Positions 3,258-52,460 of a stretch of DNA of 52,888 nucleotides are shown here, piece after piece (the stretch's first letter is position 1; the number at the start of each line of letters is the position of its first letter). Source of the stretch: a virus (Duplodnaviria; Caudoviricetes). Location of the stretch: the IMG/VR virus record IMGVR_UViG_3300021440_001469, positions 1 through 52,888 of that record. The stretch is one strand, 5' to 3'. The notes beneath the pieces are model-generated. The model was not told the DNA's origin, did not search any database, and saw nothing but the letters and a program-made list of their open reading frames with translations. The position numbers and the translations under genes were made by a program.

Positions 3258-3547
3258 CCCGCACCCCTGACGACATCACCAAAACGCTACGCCGTGTGCT
3301 GAAGCGGGCCCGCGCTGCCCAAACAGCAGCGGACGTTCGCGTCACGCCTGCCGAACGCCTCGCCCTCCTCGAAAATCTGCTGCCGGCCGCCATCGCTCAC
3401 GCTCGCGCTAACGAGCGCCGGCGGGCGCACTATGCTGTGCTGTGCGGCTGCCGGGTTTTCGTGAGAACGACCGTATACGGTGCCGTCATCGTGTCGCCTG
3501 ACAAAGACGCGGCTCCGGTGGCCATGTCCAACGCAATGCGCGTGTGA
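3254..3547 (+). CDS. Hypothetical cargo protein B
   Basis: ATGA overlap with upstream stop; MTRTPDDITK... Confidence 0.6.
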   Translation: MTRTPDDITKTLRRVLKRARAAQTAADVRVTPAERLALLENLLPAAIAHARANERRRAHYAVLCGCRVFVRTTVYGAVIVSPDKDAAPVAMSNAMRV

Positions 3548-3554
3548 GGGCGGC

Positions 3555-6521
3555 ATGATCGATACCGCTTCCATACTCGACCAATTCCGCACCGCTGCTG
3601 CGGCCCGCGGGCTGCTGCTGCCCGATCACCTCGACGCTGACGGCAAGCTGCACCGCTGCGAGCTGGCCAGCGGCGCCAAGGGCAAGAAGGACGGCGCCTA
3701 TCTGCTGCACCTCGACGGCGTGCCGGCCGGGGGCTTCCAGAACTTCAAGGATGGGCTCGAGTGGGAGAACTGGAAGGCCGACATCGGCCGCCAGCTTACC
3801 CCCGAGGAAGAAGCCGCCCACCGGGCCCGCGTGGAAGCCCAACGCGCCGAACGCGAGGCCGAAGCCAAGGCCAAACGGGAGAAGGCCCGCCGCAAGGCTA
3901 ACGCGATCTGGAACGGTGCCAAGCCGGCGCCGGACGATCACCCTTACCTGCTCCGCAAGGGCGTTCCGTCCTTCGGCCTGCGGGTGGCCGCCTGGCCGAA
4001 GTGGCAGGAGCTGCGCCCCGGTGAATGGCGGGAAGAGCGCATTCCGGGCGCCTTGCTGGTGCCGATGCGCAGCCCTTCGGGCACGCTGCACAGCCTGCAA
4101 GCGATCTACGCCGACAAGGTGGACGGGCGGGACAAGGATTTTCTTCCGGGCGGCGAGAAGGCCGGCAAGTTCCATCTGATCGGCGAGATTACCGAAGGCG
4201 CGCCCCTGTGCGTGGCCGAAGGCTACGCCACGGCCGCCAGCATTCACCAGGCGACCGGCTGGCCGGTGGCGGTGGCCTTCGATGCCGGCAGCCTCGAGCC
4301 CGTTGCCCGCGCCTTGCGCGAGGTGCACCCCGCGGTGCGCTTTGTGATCTGCGCCGATGACGATCACCAGACCGCCGGCAACCCTGGCCGCAGCAAGGCC
4401 GAAGCCGCGGCCCGTGCGGTGGGCGCAGCGGTGGCGGTGCCGGTCTTCGGCCCGGATCGCCCCGCGAACGCCACCGACTTCAACGACCTGGCCAGCCTCG
4501 CCGGCCTCGATGCGGTGCGCGGTATCGTGCAGGCTGCGGCCGCGATAGCCGCCCCGCAGGGCGATGAAACGCCCATCGATGCACCTTCCCCCATGCTCGA
4601 AGCTGAAACGCCCGCCAGCGGGCCGGAAACGGCCCCCGCTGCGCCTCCTGCTCCATCCGCTGACGAACCCGACAAGCCCGCCAAGCGCACCCGCTCGAAA
4701 GCGAGGGGCAAGGCCAATGCCGGGCAGGCACCGGCACCGGGCGGCGAGTTGTTCGAGCTGCGCGACGGCAACGACGGCCGGGGCGTCTATCGCCTGAAGG
4801 TCGAGAAGCGCGGCGATGGCTGGGAACAGATCGAACAGTTCGTGTGCGCCCCCCTCGAGATCACGCACCAGTGCCGGGACGCCCGCGGCGAGGGCTGGCA
4901 GCGCCTGGCCACCTTTCAGGATCATGACGGCCGCCGCCGCCGGGTGCTGGTGCCTGACGACATGCTCGAAGGCGACGGCGCCGCGCTGGCCCGGCTGCTG
5001 CGCACGCATGGCCTGTTCATCGGCGACAACAAGGGCGGGCTGCTCAAGATGTACGTGAACCGCTCCCGTCCGCCAGCCCGTGCCCGCCTGACCGCCCGCA
5101 TCGGTTGGCATGAAGGCGTCGACGAGCCCGGCCGCTGGTCCTACATCCTGGGGGGCGATGCCGATCCGCTCGCCCCAGACGGGGCGGAACTGTGGCTGCA
5201 CCAGGCCAACGGCAGCGGACATGCCCAGTTCAAGCAGGCCGGCAGCCTCGAAGACTGGCGGGCCAACGTGGCCGCCCTGGCGGTGGGCAACAGCCGGTTG
5301 ATCTTCGCGTTGTCGGCCGCGTTTGCCGGTGGCCTGTGCTGGCTGCATCCGAACGTATCAGGCGGCTTCCATTGGGCCGGCGGTTCGAGCCTGGGGAAGT
5401 CGGCCCTGCTCTACGCTGCGGCGAGCCTGTGCGGCCCGGCGACCTACCGCCGGACATGGCTGCTCACGGCAACGGCAATCGAAGGCGTTGCCGCCGGGCA
5501 CTGTGACGCGCCACTCTTGCTCGATGAACTCAAGCAGGCCGGCAACCCGCGGGACGTGGCCCAAGCGGCCTACATGCTCACCAGCGGGCAGGGCAAGGGA
5601 CGCGGGCAGGCGGCCGGCGGACTGCGGGAAACCGCGGCCTTCTCGCTGCTGTTCCAGTCGAACGGGGAAATCGGCTTGACTCAGTTCCTCGAAGAGAACC
5701 AGGAACGCGCCTATGCAGGGCAAGAGGTGCGCTTCTGCGAGCTGCCCGCCGATGCCGGCGCCGGCTTCGGCTGCTGGGACGTGCTGCACGGCCTGCCCGA
5801 TGGCGCCCGCTTCTCCGAAACCCTGCAACGCAACGCCGCCAAGCACTACGGCACGGCCTGGCCCGAGTTCATCCGCCGTGTGATCGGGGAGCGGGACACG
5901 ATGCCCGCTCAGTTCGAAGAACTGCGACAAGCCTTCAACGACCGCGCCCTCAGCGACAAGGCCGGCGGACAGGCGATCCGGGCGGCGACCCGCTTCGCTG
6001 CGGTGGCCTACGCGGGCGAGAAGGCCACCGAATGGGGGCTGACCGACTGGCCGCAAGGCGAGGCGATCAAGGCGGCTTTCCGCATGTTCAAGGACTGGCT
6101 GCACGCCTTTGGCGGTGAAGAGAACCGCGAGCCACGCAAGATGGTGGAACAGGTGCAGGCGTGGATTCAAGCCCATGCCGGCGCCCGCCTGGAAGACTGG
6201 CGCCGCCCCAGCATCAGCGACACGCACGCCCCGCGGACGATGAACCGGGCCGGCTGGAAGCGCCCGACCAAGGAAACCGCCAGCCTCAACGAACCCGATC
6301 ACGTCTTTGAATATCTGATCTATCCGGCGGTGTTCAAGGGCGAATTGTGCAACGGGTTTGACCCGGCACAGGTGGCCAAGGTGCTGCTTGCTGAGGGGCT
6401 GCTTGAGCATGGCGACGGCCGGAACATCCCGATCAAGGCGAGAGAGCCCGGAGTGGACGGCACGAGCCGCTTGTATTGCATAAAACCGGCGGTGTTTGGG
6501 TGGGGTGAAGACCATGATTGA
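3555..6521 (+). CDS. Primase-helicase (Toprim + DUF927/SF3-like helicase)
   Basis: Toprim VAEGYATA, ICADDD, DFND; Pro/Ala linker; Walker A GGSSLGKS and Walker B LLLDE. Confidence 0.9.
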   Translation: MIDTASILDQFRTAAAARGLLLPDHLDADGKLHRCELASGAKGKKDGAYLLHLDGVPAGGFQNFKDGLEWENWKADIGRQLTPEEEAAHRARVEAQRAEREAEAKAKREKARRKANAIWNGAKPAPDDHPYLLRKGVPSFGLRVAAWPKWQELRPGEWREERIPGALLVPMRSPSGTLHSLQAIYADKVDGRDKDFLPGGEKAGKFHLIGEITEGAPLCVAEGYATAASIHQATGWPVAVAFDAGSLEPVARALREVHPAVRFVICADDDHQTAGNPGRSKAEAAARAVGAAVAVPVFGPDRPANATDFNDLASLAGLDAVRGIVQAAAAIAAPQGDETPIDAPSPMLEAETPASGPETAPAAPPAPSADEPDKPAKRTRSKARGKANAGQAPAPGGELFELRDGNDGRGVYRLKVEKRGDGWEQIEQFVCAPLEITHQCRDARGEGWQRLATFQDHDGRRRRVLVPDDMLEGDGAALARLLRTHGLFIGDNKGGLLKMYVNRSRPPARARLTARIGWHEGVDEPGRWSYILGGDADPLAPDGAELWLHQANGSGHAQFKQAGSLEDWRANVAALAVGNSRLIFALSAAFAGGLCWLHPNVSGGFHWAGGSSLGKSALLYAAASLCGPATYRRTWLLTATAIEGVAAGHCDAPLLLDELKQAGNPRDVAQAAYMLTSGQGKGRGQAAGGLRETAAFSLLFQSNGEIGLTQFLEENQERAYAGQEVRFCELPADAGAGFGCWDVLHGLPDGARFSETLQRNAAKHYGTAWPEFIRRVIGERDTMPAQFEELRQAFNDRALSDKAGGQAIRAATRFAAVAYAGEKATEWGLTDWPQGEAIKAAFRMFKDWLHAFGGEENREPRKMVEQVQAWIQAHAGARLEDWRRPSISDTHAPRTMNRAGWKRPTKETASLNEPDHVFEYLIYPAVFKGELCNGFDPAQVAKVLLAEGLLEHGDGRNIPIKAREPGVDGTSRLYCIKPAVFGWGEDHD

Positions 6522-9266: not shown

Positions 9267-11591
9267 ATGTCCGCCCAAAAAATCCTGTACGAAATAGCCG
9301 CCGAGGACAAAACGGCGGCCGGATGGTCCTCCGCCAAGTCCACCGCGGAACGGCATCTTGCCGACATTGAAGGTCGGTCACGGATATTTGCTGACAGGAT
9401 CAACGGGGCATTCAACGCCGTGAAGGGGCTGGCGATTGCGGGCGCATTCTACGAAACCGCCGGCTCCCTGAAGTCCGCCCAGATGGAAGCCCAGAAGCTG
9501 GCGGCCTCGCTCAACTTCTCAAGCGGCAATCGGGCCGGCGAAGAACTCGACTATCTGCGGAACATCACCCGGCAATTGGGCATAGATTTCGGTTCCGCCT
9601 CCAGTGCTTACGCGAGCTTTGCGGCATCGGCCAAGGGCACCGGGATAACCGGCGACACCCTCAAGGCAACCTTTGAAGGCGTCAGCAAGGCAGCCTCTCA
9701 ACTCGGGCTGTCTTCCGATGAAACACAAGGCGCTCTCCTGGCGCTTTCGCAGATCATCAGCAAGGGCACCGTGCAGGCTGAAGAGCTGCGCGGGCAACTC
9801 GGGGAACGGATTCCGGGAGCGTTCAATCTGGCAGCCAAGGCCATGGGGCTGACCACGGCGGAGCTAGGCAAGCTGCTGGAGTCGGGCAGACTCACGGCGG
9901 CTGAATTCCTGCCCCGATTTGCCGCCGAACTGAATGCCACTTACCAGGCGACGGATAACCTCGTTGCGGCCACTAATCGGCTGACGAGCGCCTGGGACGA
10001 CTGGAAGCGCTCGCTCTCCGATGGGGCGAGCGGCAGCGGGCTTTCATGGCTGACACGCGGTTTGAATGAATCGTCCGCGGCGATGCGGGAGCTTGGATCG
10101 GAAGCCGGCCTTGTGAAGCACATTCTTGTTGCCATTGGCGGCTTTCAGTTTGGCGCCGTGAATGCCGGAAAGTTCGATACCGCACAGGTCCGCCAAAATC
10201 TTCAGGCGGAGTTCTCGCGGGTGCAGGACGGCCTTGCGCAGGTGGAAGCCCTCAAGAATAAACAGGGCGGCTATCTCGATCCGTTCCAAACGCAAACCCT
10301 TGCCGACTACCGGCGCGAACTTGGCCGGACCAGGGCTGCCATCGATGAACTTGCCGTTTCAGAAGGCAAGCGGAAAGGGATCAAGCTCCCCAACCTCAAG
10401 GAAGACTTTGCCGCGCAGCAAGCCCGGCAGCAGGAAGGGCTGAAGGCCTACCTGAAAGATATGCGTCAGGCCACGAAGGATGAAAAAACCGCTGCCAGCG
10501 TCGCCGCCGAGACTGACGCCTTCACCAAGGCGACTTCCGATTTAGACCGAAAATCCAAGGCCTACACCGACGCCTTGAAGATTCATCAGGCGCGCATCGC
10601 CGAAATTCAGAAGGGTGACAAGTCTGGAACCGGCCGTGCCAATTCCGTCGACCTTAACGCGGGTTCCGATCTGGAAGCCGCCAAGAGCTATGCCGATGCG
10701 CTTAAGTCGTTGGGCGATATCCAGACGACGGCGACGAACAGCGCCCTAGGCCTGGCCGGCGCCGAGGCCTCGCTAACCAAGATCATGTCATCGCCCGAAT
10801 GGGAGCGGATGCCCGCAGCTTGGCGGGATGTCATCAAGTCCCAGTACGAAGCCGCAACGGCGGCCGAGCAACTCGCCCGCGGCGAAGCGAATGTCCGCGA
10901 AGCGTACAGCCGGACGATTCAGCCCTTGCGTGCCCGGCTGGCCGAACTCGAAAAAGAAAACGACTTCTACGGCCTGACCGAAGCACAGATCAATGTTGTG
11001 ACGGCGGCCCGGCTTGACGAGGCGGTCGCCATCGCCAAGGCCAACGGCGCCACCGAAGATCAACTCGCCACCTTGGAGCGAGAGCGAGACCTGCGCTTGG
11101 ATATCGCCAAGCAGGCCGGGGCAAAGGACTTGCGGGACATGGAGCGCCGCCGCATTCAGGATGAGGCTGACGACCTGAAGCGGATTGGCGATGACGTCGG
11201 GGCATCCCTGACCGATGCGATATTCCACGGTGGGCGAAACGGCTGGAAAATGCTCAAGTCGACCATCGAAGCCACCGTCATCCGCGCCACCATCCTTCCT
11301 CAAATTCAGGGTGAAATAAACTCGGTTCTCGGGGCTGTCATGGGGAAGGGCACCGGGGGTTCATCCGGTGGCTTGCTGGGTGGCCTGGGTTCGTTCGTCA
11401 AGGATTTGTTCGCCGGCAGCAACAAAGCGGCCGTATCCGCCAAGTCCGCTGAAGACTACATCGACGCCGGGGGACTGGGGCAGGGGAAGTCGATGGGCTT
11501 TCTGGCCGCACTCTTCAACAGCCTGCCGAGCTTCGACGTTGGAACGCCTTATGTGCCGCGCACCATGTTCGCCAAGATCCACTGTCACTGA
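9267..11591 (+). CDS. Tape measure protein, truncated near its C-terminus by IS21
   Basis: Tape-measure domain LSQIISKGTVQAEELRGQLGERIPG; long helical Ala-rich body; C-terminal motif FDVGTPYVP...AKIH cut at 11582. Confidence 0.9.
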   Translation: MSAQKILYEIAAEDKTAAGWSSAKSTAERHLADIEGRSRIFADRINGAFNAVKGLAIAGAFYETAGSLKSAQMEAQKLAASLNFSSGNRAGEELDYLRNITRQLGIDFGSASSAYASFAASAKGTGITGDTLKATFEGVSKAASQLGLSSDETQGALLALSQIISKGTVQAEELRGQLGERIPGAFNLAAKAMGLTTAELGKLLESGRLTAAEFLPRFAAELNATYQATDNLVAATNRLTSAWDDWKRSLSDGASGSGLSWLTRGLNESSAAMRELGSEAGLVKHILVAIGGFQFGAVNAGKFDTAQVRQNLQAEFSRVQDGLAQVEALKNKQGGYLDPFQTQTLADYRRELGRTRAAIDELAVSEGKRKGIKLPNLKEDFAAQQARQQEGLKAYLKDMRQATKDEKTAASVAAETDAFTKATSDLDRKSKAYTDALKIHQARIAEIQKGDKSGTGRANSVDLNAGSDLEAAKSYADALKSLGDIQTTATNSALGLAGAEASLTKIMSSPEWERMPAAWRDVIKSQYEAATAAEQLARGEANVREAYSRTIQPLRARLAELEKENDFYGLTEAQINVVTAARLDEAVAIAKANGATEDQLATLERERDLRLDIAKQAGAKDLRDMERRRIQDEADDLKRIGDDVGASLTDAIFHGGRNGWKMLKSTIEATVIRATILPQIQGEINSVLGAVMGKGTGGSSGGLLGGLGSFVKDLFAGSNKAAVSAKSAEDYIDAGGLGQGKSMGFLAALFNSLPSFDVGTPYVPRTMFAKIHCH

Positions 11592-11725
11592 CCGCCACAT
11601 AGAGCCACCGATGATCGGCACAATGGAGCCAGTTTGAATCGTCTCTGACGGACGTCTTCGGGGGTCAAGAGTGGTGGTTTTTCGGGGTGCTGGCAAGCGC
11701 TGTTTTGGCCTTGTTCGGACCCTGC
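11583..11725 (-). mobile_element. IS21-family right end (IR plus 3' tip of istB)
   Basis: TGTCA terminus with repeated TGAYCGSCACA..GAGCCA sites at 11589-11607 and 11612-11631. Confidence 0.85.
11665..11725 (-). pseudogene. istB: Detached 3' end of istB (QGPNKAKTALASTPKNHHS*)
   Basis: Joins in frame to the istB fragment at 52461 across the CCCTGC duplication. Confidence 0.85.
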
Positions 11726-11766
11726 TAACGCCCCGCGCGATAAATGCCGATTTTGAGGCGAGATAA
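11726..11766 (+). repeat. Prophage left terminus with transposase-binding sites
   Basis: TAA start; GCGCGATA at end positions 10-17 and GCGAGATA at 33-40. Confidence 0.8.
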
Positions 11767-11819
11767 TCGGCGGGCCGCGGGCTTTCGGGTGGCGAAAGAA
11801 AATTACGCTGGGCGGCACT

Positions 11820-12446
11820 TTACTTTGTCCTGGCTGGCTCCGCGAGCCTTCCGGAGCTAAATGCGGGCTCCCAGGTAGACGGGCTCTCGTCTTGTGCCTT
11901 GGCGGTCACCACGCCCATGGCCAGGTCGTCGAGGACCGCCTCGAGGAGGCGAAGGCCTATCGGGGCGAGGGCGCGGCGCCAGAGGCCGGACGGGGTTTCG
12001 CCCGGCAGGACGTGGCACCAGTCCTGCCGGGCGATGGGCCCGGTGTCGGCGCCGTCATCCATCCAGTACGCGGTGCCGCCGGCGATGGCGTCGCCCATGT
12101 GAACGGTCCAGCGGACGGCGTCGCGGCCACGGTGCCTCGGGAGCAGCGATGGATGATAGCCGAGGGCGCCGTAGCGGGTGGCGGCGCGGGCGCCGGCGTC
12201 GATGAAGGCGTGGGCATGGGCGGCTACGATCACATCGACGCCGGTGGGGATATCGGCGGCGCTTACCCTTCGGCCGCGGTGCTCGGCCGGCACGCCGGAC
12301 TGCCGGGCCGCGGCGTAAAGGCGGTCGTATTCCTCACGGGGCGACGCCGGCGCCAGCACCTTGACCACCTCGTGGCCTCGCCGGAGGCACAGGCGCAGGG
12401 CCTCGGCGCCGAACCATTGCTGCCCTACGATCACGATGCGCATCAT
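11820..12446 (-). CDS. Formyltransferase (Fmt-like N-terminal domain only)
   Basis: YHPSLLPRHRG and DDGADTGPI motifs. Confidence 0.9.
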   Translation of the reverse strand: MMRIVIVGQQWFGAEALRLCLRRGHEVVKVLAPASPREEYDRLYAAARQSGVPAEHRGRRVSAADIPTGVDVIVAAHAHAFIDAGARAATRYGALGYHPSLLPRHRGRDAVRWTVHMGDAIAGGTAYWMDDGADTGPIARQDWCHVLPGETPSGLWRRALAPIGLRLLEAVLDDLAMGVVTAKAQDESPSTWEPAFSSGRLAEPARTK

Positions 12447-13561
12447 GCGGCCTCCCCGAGATAGCGGAAGCCCTGCACGGCGCGGAAGTGCCCCCCGTAT
12501 CCCGCGGCAGTCGGCCCCTGGCGTCCGGCTTTCCGGGCTGATCGATTGACCGACTCCGCACTGCGCCCCTTATGGGCGCCCACCAGCGCGGCTGACACCT
12601 GCGTCCAGTTGCGATCGCGACGCAATGCCGCGGCGAGGCCGGGGTGGCTGGTGTGAAAGAGCGTCCGTAGCGGCCGCCCGTAGCGGTTATGCCCTTCAAG
12701 CCAGGCCTGGCAGACGGCGTTGAGGAAGCGCATCCCGACGCCGGCCCCCTGCCATTCGGGCATGACCACCAGCCGGCATGCGCGGGCCTCGACAAGCCCC
12801 GGACGGGTGCTGACGGCCACATGGGCGACGAGTTGGTCGTCGATTGTGGCCACGTAGTTGGTGGCGGCGATCATGTGGGGCAGCTTCAGATAGTGATGCG
12901 CTTCAAAGGCTGGCCAGTGGCGCCAGTCTGTCTGGTGGATACACATTTCCAGGGGTGGGCGGCGCCGAAGTACCCCCCGTTCGAAGATGCCCGACCCGGT
13001 ATCGAAGACCCAGTCGGGCTGAACCCAATCGAGGATGTCGTAGTGGCACGAGAGGAGCACCACCCGCCCGCGGCTGCGGCGCCAGGCCTTGGCGAACGCC
13101 CCGGCGCCGACCCGTGCGATCTGGCGGTCGACCACCGACGAGAACTCATCGATGACCGCGAAGCGCGGCGCATCGCACACCAGTCGCGCGAGGTTGGCGC
13201 GGAATTGCTCCCCGTTTGACAGCACCTTGAACGGCCTCAGCCACGCCGGCACACTGCCCAGCCCAACGGCCGAGAGGGCAGCAAATGTGTCGTTGACGTC
13301 GCCTCTGGGGTTGATGGCGTCGATGATCGGAGCGGCGGTAGGCCAGGCCGGGGCGTAGATCGGGCCGAGCTGGCGGCCAAGGCTGGTCTTTCCGCTGCCG
13401 CTGGGGCCGACGATGACACCGATCTGCCAGTCGTCGCCTTCGATGGGCAGCTCGGCATCGAGGGCGAAATCGGCGCCCGACTCGACGTTGAAGAGGGATT
13501 TCACCCGTGCCGCACGGTACGAGTCGAAATCGCGGCAGGTGTTGCGGACGGCGAGCTTCAT
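12443..13561 (-). CDS. ABC ATPase - GNAT acyltransferase fusion
   Basis: GPSGSGKT, LSNGEQFR, VIDEF, SCH; then HHYL and RLVVMPEWQGAGVG (acyl-CoA binding motif). Confidence 0.9.
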   Translation of the reverse strand: MKLAVRNTCRDFDSYRAARVKSLFNVESGADFALDAELPIEGDDWQIGVIVGPSGSGKTSLGRQLGPIYAPAWPTAAPIIDAINPRGDVNDTFAALSAVGLGSVPAWLRPFKVLSNGEQFRANLARLVCDAPRFAVIDEFSSVVDRQIARVGAGAFAKAWRRSRGRVVLLSCHYDILDWVQPDWVFDTGSGIFERGVLRRRPPLEMCIHQTDWRHWPAFEAHHYLKLPHMIAATNYVATIDDQLVAHVAVSTRPGLVEARACRLVVMPEWQGAGVGMRFLNAVCQAWLEGHNRYGRPLRTLFHTSHPGLAAALRRDRNWTQVSAALVGAHKGRSAESVNRSARKAGRQGPTAAGYGGHFRAVQGFRYLGEAA

Positions 13562-13719
13562 ACGACCACCACCCGCGGCTTGAGCCCTTGGGCCAGGAGC
13601 TGCTTATAAACCAGCTCCTGGTGGGCCGCGTCGTCGCAGACGGCCACCACGCCGTATTGCTCGCGGTACTTGAAGCCGTTCTTACCCGGAGGGTTCGGTT
13701 TCGCTTCCTGATTTGCCAT
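13558..13719 (-). CDS. Small 53-aa protein coupled to the ATPase-GNAT gene
   Basis: GGAGG RBS; MANQEAK...EQYGVVAVCDD...KPRVVVV; ATGA overlap with the next gene. Confidence 0.8.
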   Translation of the reverse strand: MANQEAKPNPPGKNGFKYREQYGVVAVCDDAAHQELVYKQLLAQGLKPRVVVV

Positions 13720-13873
13720 GTGGCCTCCAATTGCCGGGCCCTCGGGGGGCTCGGGTTAGAGGCTCGGCGGCCTTCTGATAGAGCGTCCCGCGGCGGGGAC
13801 ACTTGATTTCGAGCCGACGGGCGTCGGCCACTGCCAGTTTCTTATTGCACTGCGCGCAACGAATTTCTTCCAC
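13682..13873 (-). CDS. com: Com-family zinc-finger regulator (fourth Cys replaced by Arg)
   Basis: EIRCAQCNKKLA...LEIKCPRRGTL; position after the tail genes near the phage end. Confidence 0.8.
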   Translation of the reverse strand: MEEIRCAQCNKKLAVADARRLEIKCPRRGTLYQKAAEPLTRAPRGPGNWRPHGKSGSETEPSG

Positions 13874-14006: not shown

Positions 14007-14231
14007 TTACACCTCGATATCCACAAAGGCGCCGCTCGGCGCCTGGCCCTCCACGGCCCCGCCCGGCCGGAAGTACACTGACTCTCCGACCGTGGCTGTC
14101 CCCCTGGCCATTGCCAGCGACCCGTCCGGCTGCTGAATCCTGAGCGTTGCGCCATCGACGGCGACGACCTCGCCGATCAGCAGCGGCGCCGACGGCACCG
14201 CGGATCGTATGTACTCCAGCAGACTAGCCAT
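14007..14231 (-). CDS. Small tail-associated protein
   Basis: Last gene of the tail operon; beta-rich GEV..VDG...ARG...GESVYFR.G. Confidence 0.7.
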   Translation of the reverse strand: MASLLEYIRSAVPSAPLLIGEVVAVDGATLRIQQPDGSLAMARGTATVGESVYFRPGGAVEGQAPSGAFVDIEV

Positions 14232-27864: not shown

Positions 27865-29910
27865 TCACCGCCGCATCACGATCAATGTCGACGGGATGTT
27901 CCCCGGCGCCAGCGTCGCGGGCGTCACCCGCACGATCGACGCCGATGCGCCCCACTGGGTATTGTCTCTGCCGGCCAGGCTGGCGTGGGCGATGGCCTGG
28001 ATGATGGCTGCGGCGTCGAGCCGGATCTGGGTAGACAGCGTGCCGCCGGCGACGGCCTCGGCCAGCGCCGCGGCCGACAGCGGAATACCGAGCGTGACCA
28101 ACAGATCGCCGTTGGCGCTGGAGACTGCCGCCGCCGCGCCGGACAGCGCAATGCTGGTCACCAGGCCGGCGCCGGAGGTCGCGATCGCCGAGGCGGCGCC
28201 GGTGAGCGGGATGTGGGTATCCAGCGCGGCCGCGGCACTGGCCCGCGCCGTCGCGCTGCCGGACAAGCCCTGCGGGGCCGTGGTGAGGCCGGCGCTGGCC
28301 AGCGCTGCCGCGAGGGCCGTGCCGGACAAGCGGATTTGTACGGTCAGCGTGGCGCTGGCGCTGGCGCCGGCCGCGGCTGAAGCCGACAGATTGGCGCCGG
28401 AGCCGAGCGCCGCCGCGGCCGAAGCCTGGGCGGCCGCGGCGCCGGACAGTGGAATGCCGCTGGTGAGGCTGGCGGCGCCCGCGGCTGTGCCAGCTGCGGC
28501 GCCGGACAGGGCAATGCCGGTGCCCGGCGTGGCGCTGCCGCCGGCCTGGGCTGCGGCATTGCCGGCCAGGGGAATCGCGGAGCCGAGGGCAGCGCTGCCA
28601 GTGGCTTGAGCGGCGGCGCTGCCGGCCAGCGGCGCGGGGCCGCCGAGCAGTGCCGCCGCGGCCGAAGCCTGGGCGGCCGCTGCCGCCGACAGCGGAATGC
28701 CGCTCGTGAGACTGCCGGCGCCCGCTGCGGTGTCGGTTGCGGCGCCGGCCAGGGCAATGCCTGCACCCAGCGTGGCGGCGCCGGCGGCCTGCGCGGCGGC
28801 GCTGCCGGCGAGGGGGATCGCGGTGCCGAGGGCGGCGCTGCCCCCCGCTTGAGCAGCGGCGCTGCCGGCAAGCGCGGTGGGGCCGCCGAGCAGCGCGGCA
28901 GCGGCCGAGGCCTGAGCCAGTGCGGCGCCGGCGAGCCGGATTTGGGCGGTGAGCACGCCGTCGGCCAGGGCCACGCTGGCCCCGCCTCCGGCGAGGCGGA
29001 TCGCTCCGGTGAGCGCCGCGCCGCCGGCTGCGCTGCCGAGCGCCGCACCGGTCAGCGGGATGGCGGTGGTCAGCGTGGCGGCGCCCGACCCTGCTGCCGT
29101 CGCACTGCCGGCCAGCGTCGCGCCGCCTCCGCCCGCCGCCGCTGGCGCAAAACGCAGCTGACGCGGGGCAAACAGCGACCAGAATGCCGCCTCGCTCGAC
29201 GTGTAGAACGCCAGTTCGCGCGCCCCCATCCGGCGCTGCAACACGATACAGCCGGCGACCTGGATCGCCGATGTGACGTTGCCGGGGCCGTTCCACTGCG
29301 GATGCCTGCCGATGTAAGGCAGGATGTCTGTATCCCAGTTGGTGTTAAACGCCCCTGCGGTTGGGCCAAAGTTAGCTGAGGCCTCCCCGTCCATCGCAAC
29401 AAATAGCTGGGAATTGTCCGCCCCCGCTGTGCCAGCGACGATGATCCACTTGCCTGTCGGCGCCACCTTGGAGCTTGTGACCCCATAAGCCGTGCCTGAT
29501 GCGTCTGTCCCGAACCACAGCTTCGAGCTGCCGTTGCCGCCGTAGTAGGCATTGGAGACGCACAGCGTCGGCGACACGACCGCATCGGCATTGCGGGTAG
29601 TGAACAGCGGCACGCCGCCCGTGCCCGTACCGGCGCCGAACGTGCCGGAGTTGAGCGCATCGATCTTGACCAGCATCAGGATCGTGATCTGCCCGGCCCG
29701 CAGGCCTTCGGTCAGCCGGATCGCCTCGCCGGTCGTGGACACATCCGGGCGCGTGCGCGCCACCCGCTTGTCGCCCAGCGCCCAGGTGTCGGCCGAGGCG
29801 CCGGTCGTGTAGCGCCCATTGCCGGGCAGCAGCAGGTTGCTCGTGCCGCGTACCGGCGTGTTGGGCGGCGGCTGCTGAGCCCACGGCAGCGGGCGCGTGA
29901 TGAGAGCCAC
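27865..29910 (-). CDS. Fibre/adhesin-like protein: LamG-like N-terminus plus Ala/Gly ~20-aa repeats
   Basis: ITILMLVK...GKWIIVAGT...LFVAMDG...YIG; repeated IPLAGSAAAQA.GAA.L units. Confidence 0.7.
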   Translation of the reverse strand: MALITRPLPWAQQPPPNTPVRGTSNLLLPGNGRYTTGASADTWALGDKRVARTRPDVSTTGEAIRLTEGLRAGQITILMLVKIDALNSGTFGAGTGTGGVPLFTTRNADAVVSPTLCVSNAYYGGNGSSKLWFGTDASGTAYGVTSSKVAPTGKWIIVAGTAGADNSQLFVAMDGEASANFGPTAGAFNTNWDTDILPYIGRHPQWNGPGNVTSAIQVAGCIVLQRRMGARELAFYTSSEAAFWSLFAPRQLRFAPAAAGGGGATLAGSATAAGSGAATLTTAIPLTGAALGSAAGGAALTGAIRLAGGGASVALADGVLTAQIRLAGAALAQASAAAALLGGPTALAGSAAAQAGGSAALGTAIPLAGSAAAQAAGAATLGAGIALAGAATDTAAGAGSLTSGIPLSAAAAAQASAAAALLGGPAPLAGSAAAQATGSAALGSAIPLAGNAAAQAGGSATPGTGIALSGAAAGTAAGAASLTSGIPLSGAAAAQASAAAALGSGANLSASAAAGASASATLTVQIRLSGTALAAALASAGLTTAPQGLSGSATARASAAAALDTHIPLTGAASAIATSGAGLVTSIALSGAAAAVSSANGDLLVTLGIPLSAAALAEAVAGGTLSTQIRLDAAAIIQAIAHASLAGRDNTQWGASASIVRVTPATLAPGNIPSTLIVMRR

Positions 29911-42975: not shown

Positions 42976-43057
42976 GGATGCGCTCCGGTTGAGGCCGGCC
43001 CCGGTGCGAACGGTGCCGACTTAGTTGTGTTGCGTGGTTTGTTTGCGTGGTTGAAGT

Positions 43058-43109
43058 ATGGGTAATTATTTACCCATCGTCAACGGAAAGTGGGAAATTT
43101 TTTATGCAT
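43058..43109. promoter_or_regulatory. Repressor operators in the divergent switch region
   Basis: Perfect dyad ATGGGTAA-TTAT-TTACCCAT at 43058-43077; degenerate copy at 43090-43109 overlapping the repressor ATG. Confidence 0.7.
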
Positions 43110-43538
43110 TTCTCCGAGCGTCTCAAAAAAGAGAGGGAGCGCCTCGGCTACAGCCAGACAGAGTTCAGCAAGATGGCCGGCGCAACGCGCAAGACGCTGT
43201 TCAACTGGGAGGCCGGATCAGGAAGCCCAGGTATCGAGGCTCTGAATACGTGGTCAGAGGTGGGGCTTGATGTGCTCTATGTAGTAACCGGCCGGCGGTC
43301 CGTGTCCTACCCGACGCACGCCCAGAGCGCGGTCGTGACGCCGATCGGCGCGACCGAGAGCAGCGGCCTGACGTGGCGCGAAACGCTGGCGGTCACGGTC
43401 GATGCGCTGAATGACACGGGCCGATCGTTGCCCAGCGCTAAGCTGTTCGATCTGGTGGACCTGTTGATGGCCTGGCAGCGGGCCGGGGCCAGGCTGGATG
43501 CTGACGCGGTGCGCACCCAGATCAGACTGGTTTCGTGA
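43104..43538 (+). CDS. XRE-family prophage repressor
   Basis: ERLKKERERLGYSQTEF...WEAG..P...GLDVLYVVTGRR. Confidence 0.9.
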   Translation: MHFSERLKKERERLGYSQTEFSKMAGATRKTLFNWEAGSGSPGIEALNTWSEVGLDVLYVVTGRRSVSYPTHAQSAVVTPIGATESSGLTWRETLAVTVDALNDTGRSLPSAKLFDLVDLLMAWQRAGARLDADAVRTQIRLVS

Positions 43539-43628
43539 CCGGCTGCACGCTGCAAGATTGATGCAAGGAAGTGCCTGTCACGTGCCGCACGTATCATCGA
43601 GCACTGCTAATATGCATGTGAGATTGAC

Positions 43629-43811
43629 GTGAATAGGGAAGAAATCGAAAGTGCGTTGAAGGAATTTCTGACTTCCCATCTCAGAAATTCAGCCCCGATG
43701 GCGCCTCCCGTCGCGATCCGGGCTCACCCCCGCCGCACGCTGAAGCTGAGGGGCATCACGCTGACGATCGACGAAGTGACTGTCGAACATGACCCGACGA
43801 GTACCAGGTAG
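43629..43811 (+). CDS. Hypothetical protein
   Basis: 60-aa ORF between the repressor and the next gene. Confidence 0.45.
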   Translation: MNREEIESALKEFLTSHLRNSAPMAPPVAIRAHPRRTLKLRGITLTIDEVTVEHDPTSTR

Positions 43812-43816
43812 ACATC

Positions 43817-44476
43817 ATGACAACCTGCCCGAAATGCCACTACACCCGCCGCCCCGAGGACACCGCACCGGACTATGAGTGCCCGAAGTGCGGGGTGGTG
43901 TATGCGAAGGCGGCCAGCCGCCCTTCAAAGCAGCCAGCGGCGCAAGCGCCCCGGCGCAATGGGGGGGTGATTCTTGCGGTTTTGCTGCTGGCTGGTGGCG
44001 CGGGTGGATGGTGGGCCATGTCGAAAAGCAGCACCGAAAAGCACGCGCCGGCCGCATTGCAGGCGGTTGCTTCGGCAGACCGGAAGAAGGTGGAAGAGGA
44101 GGCGTTTCTCAAGCGCCAGGCTGAGGAGCGCGAGCGCCAGCTGCTGGAGAAAGCGGGGAAGGATCTGGAGCGGCTGCACAGCCGCTGGAAGGATGCCAGC
44201 GCGCTGGCGGGGAGCACGGCGCGGATTGCTCTGGCGACGCCCGTCGCGTCGTTGCAGGCGATCCGCCGTGAGGCGGCGGAGATGGTGGTGCCGGAGTGCC
44301 TGGACAGCCCGAAGGCTGCACTCCTGGAGGGCATGGACAAGGAGGTCGAGGGTTACATGAAGTTCATGCAGGATGCAAACGTCGGCAAGTACCTGGCCTC
44401 GCAGTTGTTCGTAGAGGCAAGCGATGCGTTTGGAAAATTCACGTTTCGGATGAAGGACGCCTGCCCGAAGGGGTGA
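43817..44476 (+). CDS. Zinc-ribbon plus single-TM plus helical protein (accessory)
   Basis: CPKC...CPKC, hydrophobic VILAVLLLAGGAGGWW, coiled-coil. Confidence 0.75.
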   Translation: MTTCPKCHYTRRPEDTAPDYECPKCGVVYAKAASRPSKQPAAQAPRRNGGVILAVLLLAGGAGGWWAMSKSSTEKHAPAALQAVASADRKKVEEEAFLKRQAEERERQLLEKAGKDLERLHSRWKDASALAGSTARIALATPVASLQAIRREAAEMVVPECLDSPKAALLEGMDKEVEGYMKFMQDANVGKYLASQLFVEASDAFGKFTFRMKDACPKG

Positions 44477-44499
44477 CCTGACCCGCTCCGATTCCAGAG

Positions 44500-44599
44500 G
44501 ATTCGCGGCTCAGATTTGAGCCGCGAATCTACCTATCGTGGGCTCCGATTTGAGCCCACGATCAGGCCAGTTTCCGCGTCGGACTGAAGTCCGACCCAC
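44500..44599. repeat. Three adjacent palindromes, the last REP-like
   Basis: 13-bp stem 44500-44529, 11-bp stem 44535-44562, GTGG-GTCGGACTTCAGTCCGAC on minus 44578-44599. Confidence 0.7.
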
Positions 44600-44639
44600 A
44601 AAAGCCCCACCCCACCGAAGTCCCCTCGCCCGGGGCGAA

Positions 44640-44686
44640 TAATTGACTCAGGCCATTTATTCCCCTCGCGCGCGCGCCGCCACCAT
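44640..44686 (+). promoter_or_regulatory. Putative Mor/C-activated late promoter (lysis/packaging operon)
   Basis: TAATTGA-N7-CATTTA, 21 nt, -10-like CACCAT, ATG 6 nt later. Confidence 0.75.
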
Positions 44687-44692
44687 GGCGGC

Positions 44693-45202
44693 ATGCAAGT
44701 CCCCTTCCAAGTCTCGGCCCGTGGGCTGGCGTTGATCGCCGGCTTTGAGGGTTTTTCCGCCTGCCCGGCGCCGATTGCGGCCGGCCAGGCGGTGATCGGC
44801 CATGGCCATGTGATCAGGCGAAATGAGCCGCATCTGCAGTCGGCCTGCCTGTCCACCGGCCAGGCGCTGGCGCTGCTGCGCGACGACTGCCGGACGATCG
44901 AGCTGTATCTCAACGCGGTGTTGCCCGATTGGGTGCGCGCGCATCACTTCGATGCGCTGTCGTCGTTTGTGTTCGACGAGGGAATCGGGGCGTTCGACTG
45001 CTCGGTGCTGCGCGAGCGTCTGGCGGCCGGCGACCGCGACGGCGCAGGGCGGGAGTTCGGGAAGTGGGTGTTTGCCGGCGGCTTGCGCCTGCGCAGGCTG
45101 TCGATCCGGCGGGCGTGCGAGCGGCTGATGTTTGCCGGCGTGTCGGATGCCGGCATCGACAACGAGCGGCAGCGTCTCTCCAATCTGAAAGGGCCTTTAT
45201 GA
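44693..45202 (+). CDS. GH24 lysozyme-like endolysin with a degenerate catalytic triad
   Basis: GLALIAGFEG...IGHGH...FDALSSFVF..G.GAF...KWV...L..RR..E. Confidence 0.85.
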   Translation: MQVPFQVSARGLALIAGFEGFSACPAPIAAGQAVIGHGHVIRRNEPHLQSACLSTGQALALLRDDCRTIELYLNAVLPDWVRAHHFDALSSFVFDEGIGAFDCSVLRERLAAGDRDGAGREFGKWVFAGGLRLRRLSIRRACERLMFAGVSDAGIDNERQRLSNLKGPL

Positions 45203-45627
45203 GTATCCGTTTTTCGCTTTCCTTTCTCTCCGCCGACATCGATACGCCGCTGCGGATCGATGCGCATCACATTGCGTCGGATGGGAGCTGGTTCGAGCAT
45301 CCGATCCGTTCGCACGATTTGCGGGCGGGGCACACGCTGCGCCTGCTCGCGCATGTGGCGCTGGGCTTTGTGCTGCAGCGCTGCAAGCTGGCGGATGTGT
45401 GCCTGGCGGTGAGCCATGACGATGCGCAGGCGGCGCATGGGCTGGAGCTGGTTGTGATGCGGCCGGGCGCTGAGGTGGGCGCCGAGCTTGGCGCCGACGG
45501 CGAGGCGGTGGAGTGCGAGCGCCTGGTGTTTGCGCCGGGGGCGAGCGGGCAGATTGCGCTGCCCTTGGGTACCCAGCTGCAGTTGCGCGAGGTGCGCATG
45601 CCCGAGGGCGGGGCGGGCCATGGTTGA
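45199..45627 (+). CDS. Hypothetical protein in the lysis cassette
   Basis: ATGA coupling; MSIRFSLSF... Confidence 0.6.
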   Translation: MSIRFSLSFLSADIDTPLRIDAHHIASDGSWFEHPIRSHDLRAGHTLRLLAHVALGFVLQRCKLADVCLAVSHDDAQAAHGLELVVMRPGAEVGAELGADGEAVECERLVFAPGASGQIALPLGTQLQLREVRMPEGGAGHG

Positions 45628-45826
45628 GGCGAAGCCGTGGTGGCAGTCGAGAACGCTGTGGGTGAATGCGCTGGCGGCCGGTCTGGTGGCGCTGGAGGCG
45701 GGCACGGGGATGCTGCAGCCGGTGCTGCCGGTGAATTTTTATACGGCGCTGGCGGTGCTTCTGCCGGCGGTGAATGCGGTTTTGCGCGTGGTGACGAGCC
45801 AGGCGATCAGGGGATCGGAGCGCTAA
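45620..45826 (+). CDS. Holin-like protein
   Basis: KPWWQSRTLWVN, two hydrophobic helices, NAVLRVVTSQAI. Confidence 0.75.
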   Translation: MVEAKPWWQSRTLWVNALAAGLVALEAGTGMLQPVLPVNFYTALAVLLPAVNAVLRVVTSQAIRGSER

Positions 45827-45828
45827 GT

Positions 45829-46071
45829 GTGGAATACGGATGGAAGTCTGTTTGCGTGGTCGCTGCCCTTGTGGTGGCTGCAGTGGTGGGCGGGAGCCTG
45901 CTCGACATCGTTAGCGCGCGCGTCGCGGGCCATGGTGCCGCGCTGCGCGCCGCAATGGCGGACGCCCCTGCTTGCGGATCAGGTGCGGCGCTTGAAGCTG
46001 AGGCCGGACAGTGCCCGCCCGCGCGTGCGCCGGACGTGGCGTCCGGCGGAGCAGTGAGGGGGCCGAAGTGA
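45829..46071 (+). CDS. Small membrane protein, possible spanin remnant
   Basis: N-terminal TM VCVVAALVVAAVVGG; GGAG upstream; follows the holin. Confidence 0.45.
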   Translation: MEYGWKSVCVVAALVVAAVVGGSLLDIVSARVAGHGAALRAAMADAPACGSGAALEAEAGQCPPARAPDVASGGAVRGPK

Positions 46072-46334
46072 TCGATTTTGTTGGCGATGAGGGTGACCGG
46101 GCCACCCAACTGGCGGAAGACTTTGCGGGGGATGCGCTGGCCGAGCAGCGCCGGCACGACCCGACGGCCGGCAAGACGATGGCCGATAGCGCGAAGTGGT
46201 GCGACGGCTGCGGCCTGCGGGTGCCGGACGCGCGGCGCAAGGCGGTGCCGGGCGTGCGCTTGTGCGTGGATTGTCAGAACGATGCGGCGCGGGTGGATGC
46301 GGCCGCGCGGCGCAATGGGCGGGCAGCGCCATGA
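46068..46334 (+). CDS. TraR/DksA C4 zinc-finger protein
   Basis: CDGCG..VPDARRKAVPGVRLCVDCQ. Confidence 0.9.
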   Translation: MIDFVGDEGDRATQLAEDFAGDALAEQRRHDPTAGKTMADSAKWCDGCGLRVPDARRKAVPGVRLCVDCQNDAARVDAAARRNGRAAP

Positions 46335-46642
46335 TGGGTATTGAAGAACTGAAGCTGGGGCTGCAGGCGGTCAATCTGCTGGCGGTGGTGTGGCTGGCGC
46401 TGAGCGCGCGCAACACGGTGAGCAAGGGTGCGCTGGACGCGAAGTTGGCCGCCCACGCGGACCGGCTGACGGCGCTGGAGACGAACCAGAAAAACGGCCC
46501 GACCCATAGCGACCTGAACCGCATTCATGCCCGGCTGGATAAGTTTGGCGAGGATTTTTCAGCGTTGTCGGGCGAGCTGAAGGGCAAGGGGCACACGCTC
46601 GATCTGATCCACGAGTACTTGCTGAACGAGAGGCGTAAATGA
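46331..46642 (+). CDS. DUF2730-like membrane-anchored protein (Mu gp25-like)
   Basis: TM plus RLTALE...PTHSDL...LIHEYLL. Confidence 0.75.
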   Translation: MMGIEELKLGLQAVNLLAVVWLALSARNTVSKGALDAKLAAHADRLTALETNQKNGPTHSDLNRIHARLDKFGEDFSALSGELKGKGHTLDLIHEYLLNERRK

Positions 46643-46932
46643 GCTACGGAGACTTGCTGACCCAGGATGCGCGGCTGGTGCTGCTGCGGGTGATGCACGA
46701 GATGCCGAGCCGGCGGGCGAACAGTTCGGTGCTGTGCACGATTCTGGACGAGAAGTACGGCCACGCGCTGGACTTGCCCGCGGTGAAGCGCGAACTGCGC
46801 TGGCTGGAGGAGAACGAGCTGGTGGAGATCGAGACGGCCGGGGCGGTGCTGCTGGCGACGCTGCGCGAGCGCGGTGAGCTGGCCGTGAAGGGGCGGATCA
46901 CCGTCGAGGGCGTGAAGCGCCCGAGGATCTGA
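46639..46932 (+). CDS. Mu gp26-like winged-helix protein
   Basis: RLVLLRVM...ANSSVL...LRWLEE..LV...GVKRP. Confidence 0.8.
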   Translation: MSYGDLLTQDARLVLLRVMHEMPSRRANSSVLCTILDEKYGHALDLPAVKRELRWLEENELVEIETAGAVLLATLRERGELAVKGRITVEGVKRPRI

Positions 46933-46934
46933 CG

Positions 46935-47483
46935 ATGGGCCGCAAGAGCACGATCGACCAGCGCTCAGATGAGTTTCGGAAATACGTTTTCCGTGCGCTG
47001 CGCGAGAACCGCCTGACGCTGGACGAGCTGCGCGCTGAGCTGGAAACGGAGTTTCCGGCCGAGCCGACGCCGAGCCGCTCGGCGCTGGGCCGGCACCGGG
47101 CGAGCGTGGACGAGATGATCGCCCACGAGCGCGAGATGGCCGCGGCAGCCGAAGCGCTGGTGGGCGAGCTGGGCGAGGATTTCGACGCCAAGAGCGGCGC
47201 GCTGCTGGCCCAGGCGGTGACCACGCTGACCAGCCGCTACGCGATGGGCAAGCTGCAGAGCGGCGATGAGATGGATATCGGCGATGTGCTGGACCTGGCG
47301 CGGGCGGCAAAGACGGCGCAGGAGGCCCGGTCGTTGAATTTGAAGGAGCGGCGCGAGGTGGAACGCCTGGCGCGCGAGAAGCTGCTCGAGGAGCAGAAGG
47401 CCAAGCTCGAGGCGATGGGCAGCAAGGCCGGCGTGACCGAAGACACCAAGCGGGCGATCCGCGAGGCGTTGGGGATTGTGTGA
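46935..47483 (+). CDS. DUF3486 (Mu gp27-like small terminase)
   Basis: MGRKSTID...SRSALGRH...IREALGI; precedes TerL. Confidence 0.85.
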   Translation: MGRKSTIDQRSDEFRKYVFRALRENRLTLDELRAELETEFPAEPTPSRSALGRHRASVDEMIAHEREMAAAAEALVGELGEDFDAKSGALLAQAVTTLTSRYAMGKLQSGDEMDIGDVLDLARAAKTAQEARSLNLKERREVERLAREKLLEEQKAKLEAMGSKAGVTEDTKRAIREALGIV

Positions 47484-51747: not shown

Positions 51748-51864
51748 GCGAGGGCGGGATTCGAACCCGCGTCACCGTAATCCCGCGCCGTCCGGTTGCC
51801 CGAGCTGGCCAGCACGTTGAGGACTACGTCCCGTCTGCCTGAATGGGGCTCTACCCGCTCAGAG
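51742..51864 (-). ncRNA. tRNA-like RNA (non-canonical)
   Basis: Perfect T-arm GCGGG-TTCGAAT-CCCGC, terminal stem CTCTGAGCG/CGCTCAGAG, long central stem CGTAGTCC/GGATTACG capped by a GCAA tetraloop. Confidence 0.65.
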
Positions 51865-51871
51865 TCATTCA

Positions 51872-51880
51872 AGGATAGCA
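51872..51880 (-). promoter_or_regulatory. Extended -10 promoter for the tRNA-like RNA
   Basis: TGCTATCCT on the minus strand, 7 nt upstream of the terminal stem. Confidence 0.55.
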
Positions 51881-51883
51881 AAC

Positions 51884-52330: not shown

Positions 52331-52419
52331 TTTGCGCCGCGCCGCGGGCTTTCGCCACTGAAAACACATTTTCACCCGGCCGCCCGCTATTTCCCCCTAC
52401 CGCCCACTAAATCCCGGAT

Positions 52420-52460
52420 TTATCTCGCTCAGGCCCTGGGGAATATCTCACCTCTGCTTA
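52420..52460 (-). repeat. Prophage right terminus with transposase-binding sites
   Basis: Read inward: TAA start; GTGAGATA at positions 10-17 and GCGAGATA at 33-40, same register as the left end. Confidence 0.8.

Follow-up and report, generated by a model that had tools for sequence, protein, structure and literature searches.

What takes the place of mom in a Mu-like phage that carries com, and what would such a replacement do? In the IMG/VR virus record IMGVR_UViG_3300021440_001469, analysed here over its full 52,888 nt (the window; all coordinates below are positions in it), three other genes occupy the slot downstream of com where Mu has mom. Four consecutive genes lie on the minus strand: com, an open reading frame (ORF) of 53 codons, a gene for an ABC-ATPase joined to a GNAT acyltransferase (ABC-ATPase::GNAT), and a formyltransferase gene. 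The most likely function of this cassette, at a probability of roughly 0.55, is Com-gated, ATP-dependent acylation or formylation of phage DNA. The mom slot, the Com-type RNA motif, the lack of Mom, the conserved catalytic residues and a link to ParB_N domains together fit a late, Com-gated DNA-modifying module; that DNA is the target, which acyl group is moved, what ATP does and that the product protects the phage are points that we infer.

Organization of the cassette

The com gene (13682..13873, minus strand) has 63 codons, from a GTG start at 13873 to a TAA stop at 13684–13682, and overlaps the small ORF (13558..13719, minus strand) by 38 nt. The stop of the small ORF and the start of the fusion gene (12443..13561, minus strand) share an ATGA overlap, and a second ATGA, at 12446–12443, joins the fusion gene to the formyltransferase gene (11820..12446, minus strand). 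The original prediction, which was made from the sequence alone and proposed a new DNA-modification system in place of mom, had described com followed by three translationally coupled genes at the extreme end of the phage, and this description holds: the phage terminus lies 94 nt past the formyltransferase stop and a CCCTGC repeat stands at both phage ends. Its observation that the ABC domain has no permease is likewise borne out, as no permease gene is present in the cassette and the neighbours are tail genes upstream and the phage end downstream. All three cassette proteins belong to full-length PHROG families, phrog_28816 (small protein), phrog_11143 (fusion protein) and phrog_9240 (formyltransferase), and NCBIfam gave nothing over any curated cutoff. 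A sigma-70 promoter scan found no promoter, and terminator-like sites are no more frequent than expected by chance. The three genes in the window are full-length and keep all invariant residues.

Distribution of the cassette

The fusion protein was found with tblastn in 63 cultured-phage records. One of them is that of Burkholderia phage phiE255, whose gp29 is 75% identical; other carriers are Pseudomonas phage Komp_PAO1_1 and phages of Porphyromonas, Gordonia, Lactococcus, Streptococcus, Oenococcus and Aeromonas. The genes gp28-gp29-gp30 of phiE255 and the corresponding genes of Komp_PAO1_1 form the same three-gene set, placed after tail-fibre genes, and tblastn locates a Com homologue upstream of both, in phiE255 within an unannotated gap. 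In the Gordonia and Lactococcus phages the cassette lies just ahead of the terminase. Relatives number 496 in IMG/VR and 313 in species-representative genomes, and a HMMER scan of 1.84 billion cluster representatives (50% identity) yielded 515 clusters at E up to 1e-30.

Gene content was counted in the best 80 of the 496 IMG/VR loci and the best 80 of the 313 genome loci (160 together, with flanks of 4–6 kb covered); 78 of the genome loci were informative. All 80 IMG/VR loci contain the small ORF and 59 have a detectable com; the formyltransferase is found in 57, and 19 loci end too early for its presence to be judged. The genome loci contain the small ORF in 78 of 78, the formyltransferase in 69 and a Com-like zinc ribbon in 52. 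The closest relatives in named genomes are mostly from Beta- and Gammaproteobacteria, at 61–76% identity, and the three overlapping genes travel together across phyla.

The ABC-ATPase::GNAT fusion protein

The 372-amino acid fusion protein comprises an ABC-ATPase (residues ~1–200) followed by a GNAT acyltransferase (residues ~200–372). PF00005 is matched with 27.9 bits (cutoff 25) and Acetyltransf_1 with 21.0 bits (cutoff 20.7), along with weak matches to GNAT families, and phrog_11143 covers residues 1–371 with an E value of 2.3e-157. The AlphaFold2 model of the fusion is confident, with a predicted local distance difference test score (pLDDT) of 92.2 and a predicted template modelling score of 0.87, and its N-terminal half matches ABC nucleotide-binding domains. 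The GNAT domain folded alone has a pLDDT of 80. Its best structural match is 1y9k_A, with a Z score of 14.1 and a root mean square deviation of 3.6 over 132 aligned positions, followed by RimI (5isv_A, Z score 13.8), Naa80 (Z score 13.1) and GCN5. The model thus predicts that the GNAT domain is a canonical coenzyme A (CoA)-type fold.

Conservation was assessed in 65 sequences, the window included, that extend down to ~30% identity. The residues invariant among them are those of the Walker A motif (S54, G55, G57 and K58), the LSxG signature (L114, S115 and G117), Walker B (D138-E139) and the H-loop (H173) of the ATPase, and the GNAT CoA loop R-x-V-x-x-P-x-x-Q-G (R263, V265, P268, Q271 and G272). 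Y224 of the HHY motif is also invariant and H223 is conserved in at least 90% of the sequences. The Walker A and HHY motifs, and the HPSLLP motif of the formyltransferase (21 sequences), had been singled out by the original prediction and proved to be real and conserved. The invariance of the ATPase, GNAT-loop and formyltransferase catalytic residues makes the cassette enzymes look active, and the conserved CoA loop argues for acyl-CoA as the donor.

The ATPase is always fused to the GNAT domain. No partner permease or transmembrane domain of the kind that defines an ABC transporter accompanies it, the remainder of the protein being GNAT. The Pfam scan lists no helicase-type family and no TmcA-type domain. 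PADLOC returned only a P-loop fragment match to mad3, and no stretch passes on its own. A Rosetta-stone fusion of the ATPase-GNAT protein with the formyltransferase was considered and ruled out in the long homologues P0081, P0122 and P0045, in none of which PF00551 was seen. One further long homologue, P0117 (715 amino acids), contains an intein within its ATPase part, composed of Hint and a LAGLIDADG homing endonuclease.

The formyltransferase

The 208-amino acid product of the last gene is a stand-alone catalytic domain of the 10-formyl-tetrahydrofolate type. It matches PF00551 (Formyl_trans_N) with 73.5 bits and an E value of 2.4e-20, and phrog_9240 with an E value of 1.4e-61. The best solved relative is the N-terminal domain of ALDH1L1/FDH (Protein Data Bank (PDB) entries 2bw0 and 1s3i), aligned over residues 2–193 with an E value of 6.6e-29; both PurN and Fmt fall well behind it. 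The stretch YHPSLLPRHRG is identical in the cassette protein and the ALDH1L1 domain. Invariant in 21 formyltransferases, among them AnClar gene 3 and the Porphyromonas gene, are H98-P99-S100, L102-P103 (the SLLP motif) and D134, which include the catalytic His98 and Asp134. AnClar gene 3, from a Gordonia phage (L003, 2312–2962), is 41% identical to the cassette formyltransferase, and its label 'tRNA-methyltransferase' looks misleading.

The enzyme aligns only to the first ~200 residues of the Fmt and FDH chains, ending at a position that matches residue ~212 of the 318-residue Fmt. The absence of the tRNA-binding C-terminal domain of Fmt, put forward earlier, is therefore confirmed. The catalytic His and Asp are shared with the ALDH1L1 N-terminal domain and Fmt, of which the cassette enzyme keeps the catalytic subdomain only: it lacks an Fmt-like C-terminal subdomain and the carrier and aldehyde dehydrogenase domains. 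The ALDH1L1 N-terminal domain strips the formyl group from 10-formyl-tetrahydrofolate, and a 4'-phosphopantetheine arm takes it off (PMC8748788). CoA ends in the same 4'-phosphopantetheine arm, which suggests formyl-CoA as a possible product of the phage enzyme.

The small protein and its link to ParB_N

The 53-residue product of the small ORF matches phrog_28816 with an E value of 1.1e-14, and the Pfam scan found no family for it. Its relatives share the motif G-x-N-G-F-K-Y, followed by a strand, a helix and a last strand that ends in VV-x-V. This small module stands alone, with 45–103 codons, in ~147 of 159 loci, which is the commonest form among close relatives and the form of the window, where no ParB_N is attached. 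In 10 of the 160 loci it makes up the last ~40 residues of a protein of 184–249 amino acids whose N-terminal part is ParB_N; PF02195 reaches its cutoff in three of the four such proteins scanned, and Orf23 of Lactococcus phage P335 also reaches it. The match of the ParB_N part to a type II DNA methyltransferase model has an E value of 2.8e-22 and lies in the N-terminal portion of the model. No Com gene is detectable in any of the ten ParB_N-fused loci (L079 and nine genome loci).

The small-ORF profile also aligns within single polypeptides ahead of the ATPase, to residues 184–224 of P0130 (probability 89%) and residues 157–193 of P0038 (66%), and weakly to the C-terminus of P335 Orf23 (37%). 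ParB_N was not found at E up to 1e-3 in the N-terminally extended homologues P0038, P0049, P0098 and P0130. The small ORF is a stand-alone copy of the C-terminal module that is elsewhere fused to ParB_N. The protein may be an adaptor, which would link the enzyme to a ParB_N partner or, in Mu-like phages, act alone. Complex prediction for the small protein with the ABC-ATPase::GNAT protein returned scores of 0.00 and 0.00, which speak neither for nor against binding. In the Porphyromonas phage007a record an 'acr candidate protein' (L004, 3376–3504) stands where the small ORF is found elsewhere, immediately ahead of the ATPase-GNAT gene, and this label looks misleading.

A precedent for a ParB-type partner is given by the thymine dioxygenases of phage DNA, one of which was shown to be activated by a ParB homologue (5mYOX; PNAS 2026, PMC13229309). 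Both systems have a ParB_N partner beside a phage DNA-modifying enzyme, which in the dioxygenase system is needed for activation; in the cassette it occurs in other versions only. The enzyme is different, and the window has no ParB_N, only the C-terminal module of ~45 residues being left.

Com and the control of translation

The com product matches Zn_ribbon_Com (PF10122) with 32.2 bits (cutoff 22.9) and an E value of 7.3e-8, and phrog_6417, annotated as 'translational regulator', with an E value of 8.6e-10. Nowacka et al. (2019, PMC6483171) describe an RNA target of Com defined by systematic evolution of ligands by exponential enrichment (SELEX), with the loop motif CC(N)2-3GAG. Sites of this kind were searched for in the 131 nt that precede the conserved small-ORF core, as a 4-bp stem closing a C(N)1-4GA loop. 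Both hairpins recovered in the window by this motif search precede the small ORF and have a form that fits the SELEX motif: hairpin 1, AGGC-cgccga-GCCT (13760..13773, minus strand), lies within the 3' part of com, and hairpin 2, GCCC-cccga-GGGC, spans 13738..13750 on the same strand. The Mu site at the start of mom has a like form, ATGC-ctgcga-GCAT.

Of 76 distinct segments, taken from 74 loci, the window and Mu, 69 contain one or more hairpins of this form; shuffled sequences lead one to expect 9.0. Over 159 loci, two or more hairpins are present in 76, one in 53 and none in 30. The stems vary among lineages yet pair (AGGC/GCCT, GGGC/GCCC, GCGC/GCGC, ACGC/GCGT, ATGC/GCAT and GCGG/CCGC); stem pairing was itself a search criterion, so that the valid test is the shuffle control and not the pairing. 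In one IMG/VR locus (L070, 5708–6004) only a single stop codon separates a Com-like zinc ribbon from the small-ORF core, both being in the same frame.

The Shine-Dalgarno sequence of the small ORF, GGAGG (13724..13728, minus strand), is predicted to be sequestered in a stem. The minimum free energy fold pairs 13763–13756 with 13730–13723, and the 3' arm of hairpin 1 forms part of this stem, which suggests that a Com-stabilised hairpin 1 and the inhibitory stem would be alternatives. The pairing probability of the Shine-Dalgarno sequence in the window is 1.00, a value that no shuffle of the upstream part attains (30 shuffles). The 44 distinct Com-linked loci give a mean pairing of the ribosome-binding site (RBS) of 0.73 against 0.64 in the control, and 31 of them exceed their own control mean. 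The z-score for the fold of the whole segment is −0.78, and the weight thus rests on the local hairpins and the RBS pairing only.

Comparison with Mom and related systems

In the cassette, as in the com-mom unit of Mu, com overlaps the gene that follows it, a Com-type RNA hairpin marks the junction, the enzyme has a GNAT fold and the genes stand at the extreme end of a transposable phage. The cassette differs from Mu Mom in that its GNAT domain, which keeps a CoA-binding loop, forms one protein with an ABC ATPase, and in having two additional genes. A search of the window and of 1.37 Mb of the 160 related loci found no homologue of Mom, and the proposal that the cassette replaces mom in the com-downstream slot is in agreement with this. 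The conserved H223-Y224 of the fusion protein are reminiscent of the active-site residues H58-Y59 of Mom. Mom makes N6-carbamoylmethyl-adenine with Gly-tRNA(Gly) as its donor and does so unaided (PMC13219725); the mom slot therefore predicts the purpose of the cassette, not its chemistry.

The cassette is not the candidate new system that had been suggested. An ABC-ATPase and GNAT system predicted to acylate a DNA base is mentioned by Iyer et al. (Viruses 2021, PMC7824862), who cite their 2013 paper in NAR, and the kind is represented in PHROG families, in cultured phages and in the 496 IMG/VR relatives. The predicted system (PHROG 11143 with 28816 and 9240, for example gp28-gp30 of phiE255) has the same fusion protein with the same neighbours in the same order. 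As far as it is described there, nothing essential differs; the window copy is Com-linked, carries the small module alone and has a com gene with a zinc-ligand substitution.

The ATPase of TmcA is helicase-type. TmcA and NAT10 share with the cassette the joining of an NTPase to a CoA-dependent GNAT, and they acylate an aromatic exocyclic amine of a nucleobase; the cassette ATPase, unlike theirs, is of the ABC type, and neither a tRNA-binding domain nor TmcA-type Pfam domains are present. TmcA itself is an ATPase-linked GNAT that acetylates N4 of a tRNA cytidine with acetyl-CoA (cited in PMC13219725).

Proposed function and alternatives

If the cassette acts on phage DNA, the following sequence of events may be envisaged. 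Late in infection Com would bind one or two hairpins just upstream of the small ORF. Its binding would open the stem that hides the ribosome-binding site of the small ORF, so that the three overlapping genes would be translated together. The ABC domain would dimerise on ATP and serve as a clamp or switch on phage DNA, and the GNAT domain would move an acyl group from acyl-CoA to the exocyclic amine of a DNA base. The formyltransferase would take the formyl group from 10-formyl-tetrahydrofolate, either making the donor or formylating the group already installed; formyl-CoA is proposed as this donor by analogy with the closest solved relative. The resulting mark would shield phage DNA from host nucleases, as that of Mom does. 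The acyl or formyl modification of DNA put forward by the original prediction remains plausible by context, motif conservation and the ParB_N link, while its choice of substrate among DNA, RNA and protein, and the acyl group, stay matters of inference. A more specific version is speculative and on balance doubtful: the cassette would write an N-formyl mark on the exocyclic amine of a DNA base, an enzymatic DNA modification not yet described, from formyl-CoA made by the formyltransferase and transferred by a GNAT domain held on DNA by the ATP-closed ABC dimer and the small adaptor, the whole being switched on by the Com riboregulator shared with mom.

Several observations weigh against DNA acylation. 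The nearest structures to the GNAT domain are acetyltransferases of protein N-termini or small molecules, not nucleic-acid enzymes, and the formyltransferase is related also to Fmt, a tRNA-directed enzyme. The formyltransferase is not obligatory, being absent from four of the 80 IMG/VR loci, each with at least 650 nt of downstream DNA, and from nine of the 78 informative genome loci. The effect of RBS pairing is modest: at most one of 30 shuffles reaches the observed pairing in only 12 of the 44 Com-linked loci. The comparison with Mom that was invited by the original prediction revealed no detectable sequence relation, as the 372-residue protein does not match PF25680 at E up to 1, where Mu Mom scores 253 bits, and hhalign gave probabilities of 0.2% and 0.5%. 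The Mom structure (8bv8) is not among the matches listed for the GNAT-domain model, which is still compatible with a distant fold relation. Mom, moreover, uses Gly-tRNA and not acyl-CoA, so that the analogy of the mom slot leaves the donor unfixed, and literature searches found no experimental study of any member of the cassette.

A further point of this kind concerns the Com of the window, which reads KCPRRG and thus has Arg at the fourth zinc-ligand position. Cys occupies this position (C-x-x-C) in all 61 homologues first recovered and in all 83 from the 160 loci together, and the two closest homologues, in L006 (85% identical) and L007 (81%), read KCPRCG. Com is described as a four-cysteine zinc finger by Nowacka et al. 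(2019). The zinc ribbon of the window falls one Cys short of this, though its Pfam match exceeds the cutoff. Since the zinc site needs four Cys, the window Com is probably inactive, and the loss of one ligand means that the cassette in the window may be silent, with its genes left untranslated.

Modification of RNA, likeliest of tRNA or aminoacyl-tRNA, is an unlikely alternative that draws on the same enzymes. The ATP-driven GNAT domain would acylate either a base, as TmcA does, or, in the manner of GNAT toxins, the amino group on a charged tRNA, while the Fmt-like enzyme would formylate aminoacyl-tRNA; the purpose, late in infection, would be to divert translation or to weaken defences that act through tRNA. 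Binding of charged tRNA is a property of Mom itself and TmcA offers a precedent for RNA as the acceptor (PMC13219725), GNAT toxins are reported to acetylate aminoacyl-tRNAs (PMC9177977), and the fusion protein is basic, with an isoelectric point (pI) of 9.7. The relation of the formyltransferase to Fmt (PDB entry 3r8x, E value 1.4e-14; TIGR00460, 53.9 bits) points the same way, but that score is far below the Fmt cutoff of 201.5 and the enzyme is without the C-terminal domain with which Fmt binds tRNA. The ABC type of the ATPase, with no helicase-type family in the Pfam scan, also speaks against an RNA target, as do the ParB_N of a DNA-methyltransferase-associated kind that is the partner domain elsewhere and the location of the cassette in the mom slot or beside the terminase.

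Acylation of a protein, whether host RNA polymerase, a defence protein or a virion protein, is improbable. In this case the ABC ATPase would have a regulatory or chaperone role, and a formyl donor would come from the formyltransferase. Iyer et al. (2021, PMC7824862) describe acetylation of the host RNA polymerase by phage GNATs, and the similarity of the GNAT domain to the protein N-alpha-acetyltransferases RimI (5isv) and Naa80 and to the histone acetyltransferase GCN5 would be in accord with it, but neighbours within the GNAT fold are a poor guide to the acceptor. DNA transactions are indicated instead by the gating through Com, the ParB_N partner, the position in packaging operons and the intein of P0117.

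The least probable explanation by far, that the genes are unrelated morons (auxiliary metabolic genes for the ATPase of an ABC transporter and for a PurN-like enzyme of purine synthesis) or a prophage-encoded defence system, accords with the name of phrog_9240, 'cyanobacterial phosphoribosylglycinamide formyltransferase', filed under auxiliary metabolic genes, and with the ABC transporter labels of several phage records, but it is at odds with a PurN score of 34.8 (TIGR00639, cutoff 150.1), the missing permease, the constant fusion of the ATPase to GNAT, the overlap and joint transmission of the three genes across phyla, the lack of any PADLOC family match beyond the P-loop fragment, and control by a late translational activator, which is unlike that of a defence gene expressed in the lysogen.

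The transposable phage and its neighbourhood

The cassette belongs to a bounded transposable phage of 40.7 kb (11726–52461). The cassette-proximal end, with its terminal repeats of the form GCG(C/A)GATA and the flanking CCCTGC, spans 11720..11768, and the opposite end spans 52418–52467. On the plus strand CCCTGC at 11720–11725 is followed by the terminus from 11726; beyond the other terminus, whose last position is 52461, CCCTGC stands again at 52462–52467 as the 6-bp target repeat. At each end G(C/T)G(C/A)GATA occupies positions 10–17 and GCGAGATA positions 33–40, in the same register. The phage ends in TA, as against CA in Mu. Similarity to L007, the nearest relative with sequence past the cassette, ends at the terminus at 11726. 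A megablast search of 24.4 kb against 50,697 phage records gave no match.

Upstream of the cassette, on the same strand, lie genes for tail proteins, the tape measure, the major head protein, a protease, a Mor-like activator and a Mu-type transposase, and the plus strand between 44.7 and 52.3 kb carries lysis genes, the terminase, a Mu-type portal, MuF and G. The head module is thus split within one bounded phage into two divergent blocks, 43047–52330 on the plus strand and 42910–11820 on the minus strand; the former includes the small and large terminase genes and the latter the early genes, mor, protease, capsid and tail. A reading of the prophage as rearranged or defective, given that terminase, portal and MuF lie on the opposite strand, was dropped after both termini and the 6-bp repeat had been checked.

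Between the last tail gene and com, at 14007–14231 on the minus strand, lies a gene for an acidic protein of 74 amino acids (pI 4.3, phrog_5076), and the two closest relatives, L006 and L007, keep this protein. At 27865–29910, also on the minus strand, there is a 681-codon ORF without a Pfam or PHROG family, in a region whose G+C content is 78%; Ala/Gly-rich repeats, including a 243-bp tandem repeat at 28406–28914, make up the last two thirds of the ORF, and it occupies the place that terminase and portal have in the Mu or B3 layout. Outside the phage, a satellite-like element comprises an integrase gene (1–1272), a Toprim/DUF927 primase gene (3480–6521) and a tape-measure gene (9267–11591) whose frame stops at 11591, and a fragment of an IS21 IstB gene (52448–52888) adjoins the other phage end. 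A nested arrangement is proposed, in which the phage may lie inside istB and istB inside the tape-measure gene.

Implications

The cassette is of a kind already known and computationally predicted, and the copy in the window is an ordinary one whose regulator may be inactive. It nevertheless belongs among the commoner uncharacterised enzyme sets in phage genomes, and as a whole it is a good experimental target. The upstream Com-type riboregulator, the ParB_N link of the small protein and the relation of the formyltransferase to ALDH1L1 are added by the present analysis and ease the design of experiments. Should DNA prove to be the target, the cassette would offer a second answer, different in its chemistry, to the problem that Mom solves, and the mark would probably be a new base modification, with a bearing on restriction evasion, on the sequencing and cloning of phage DNA and on enzyme tools.

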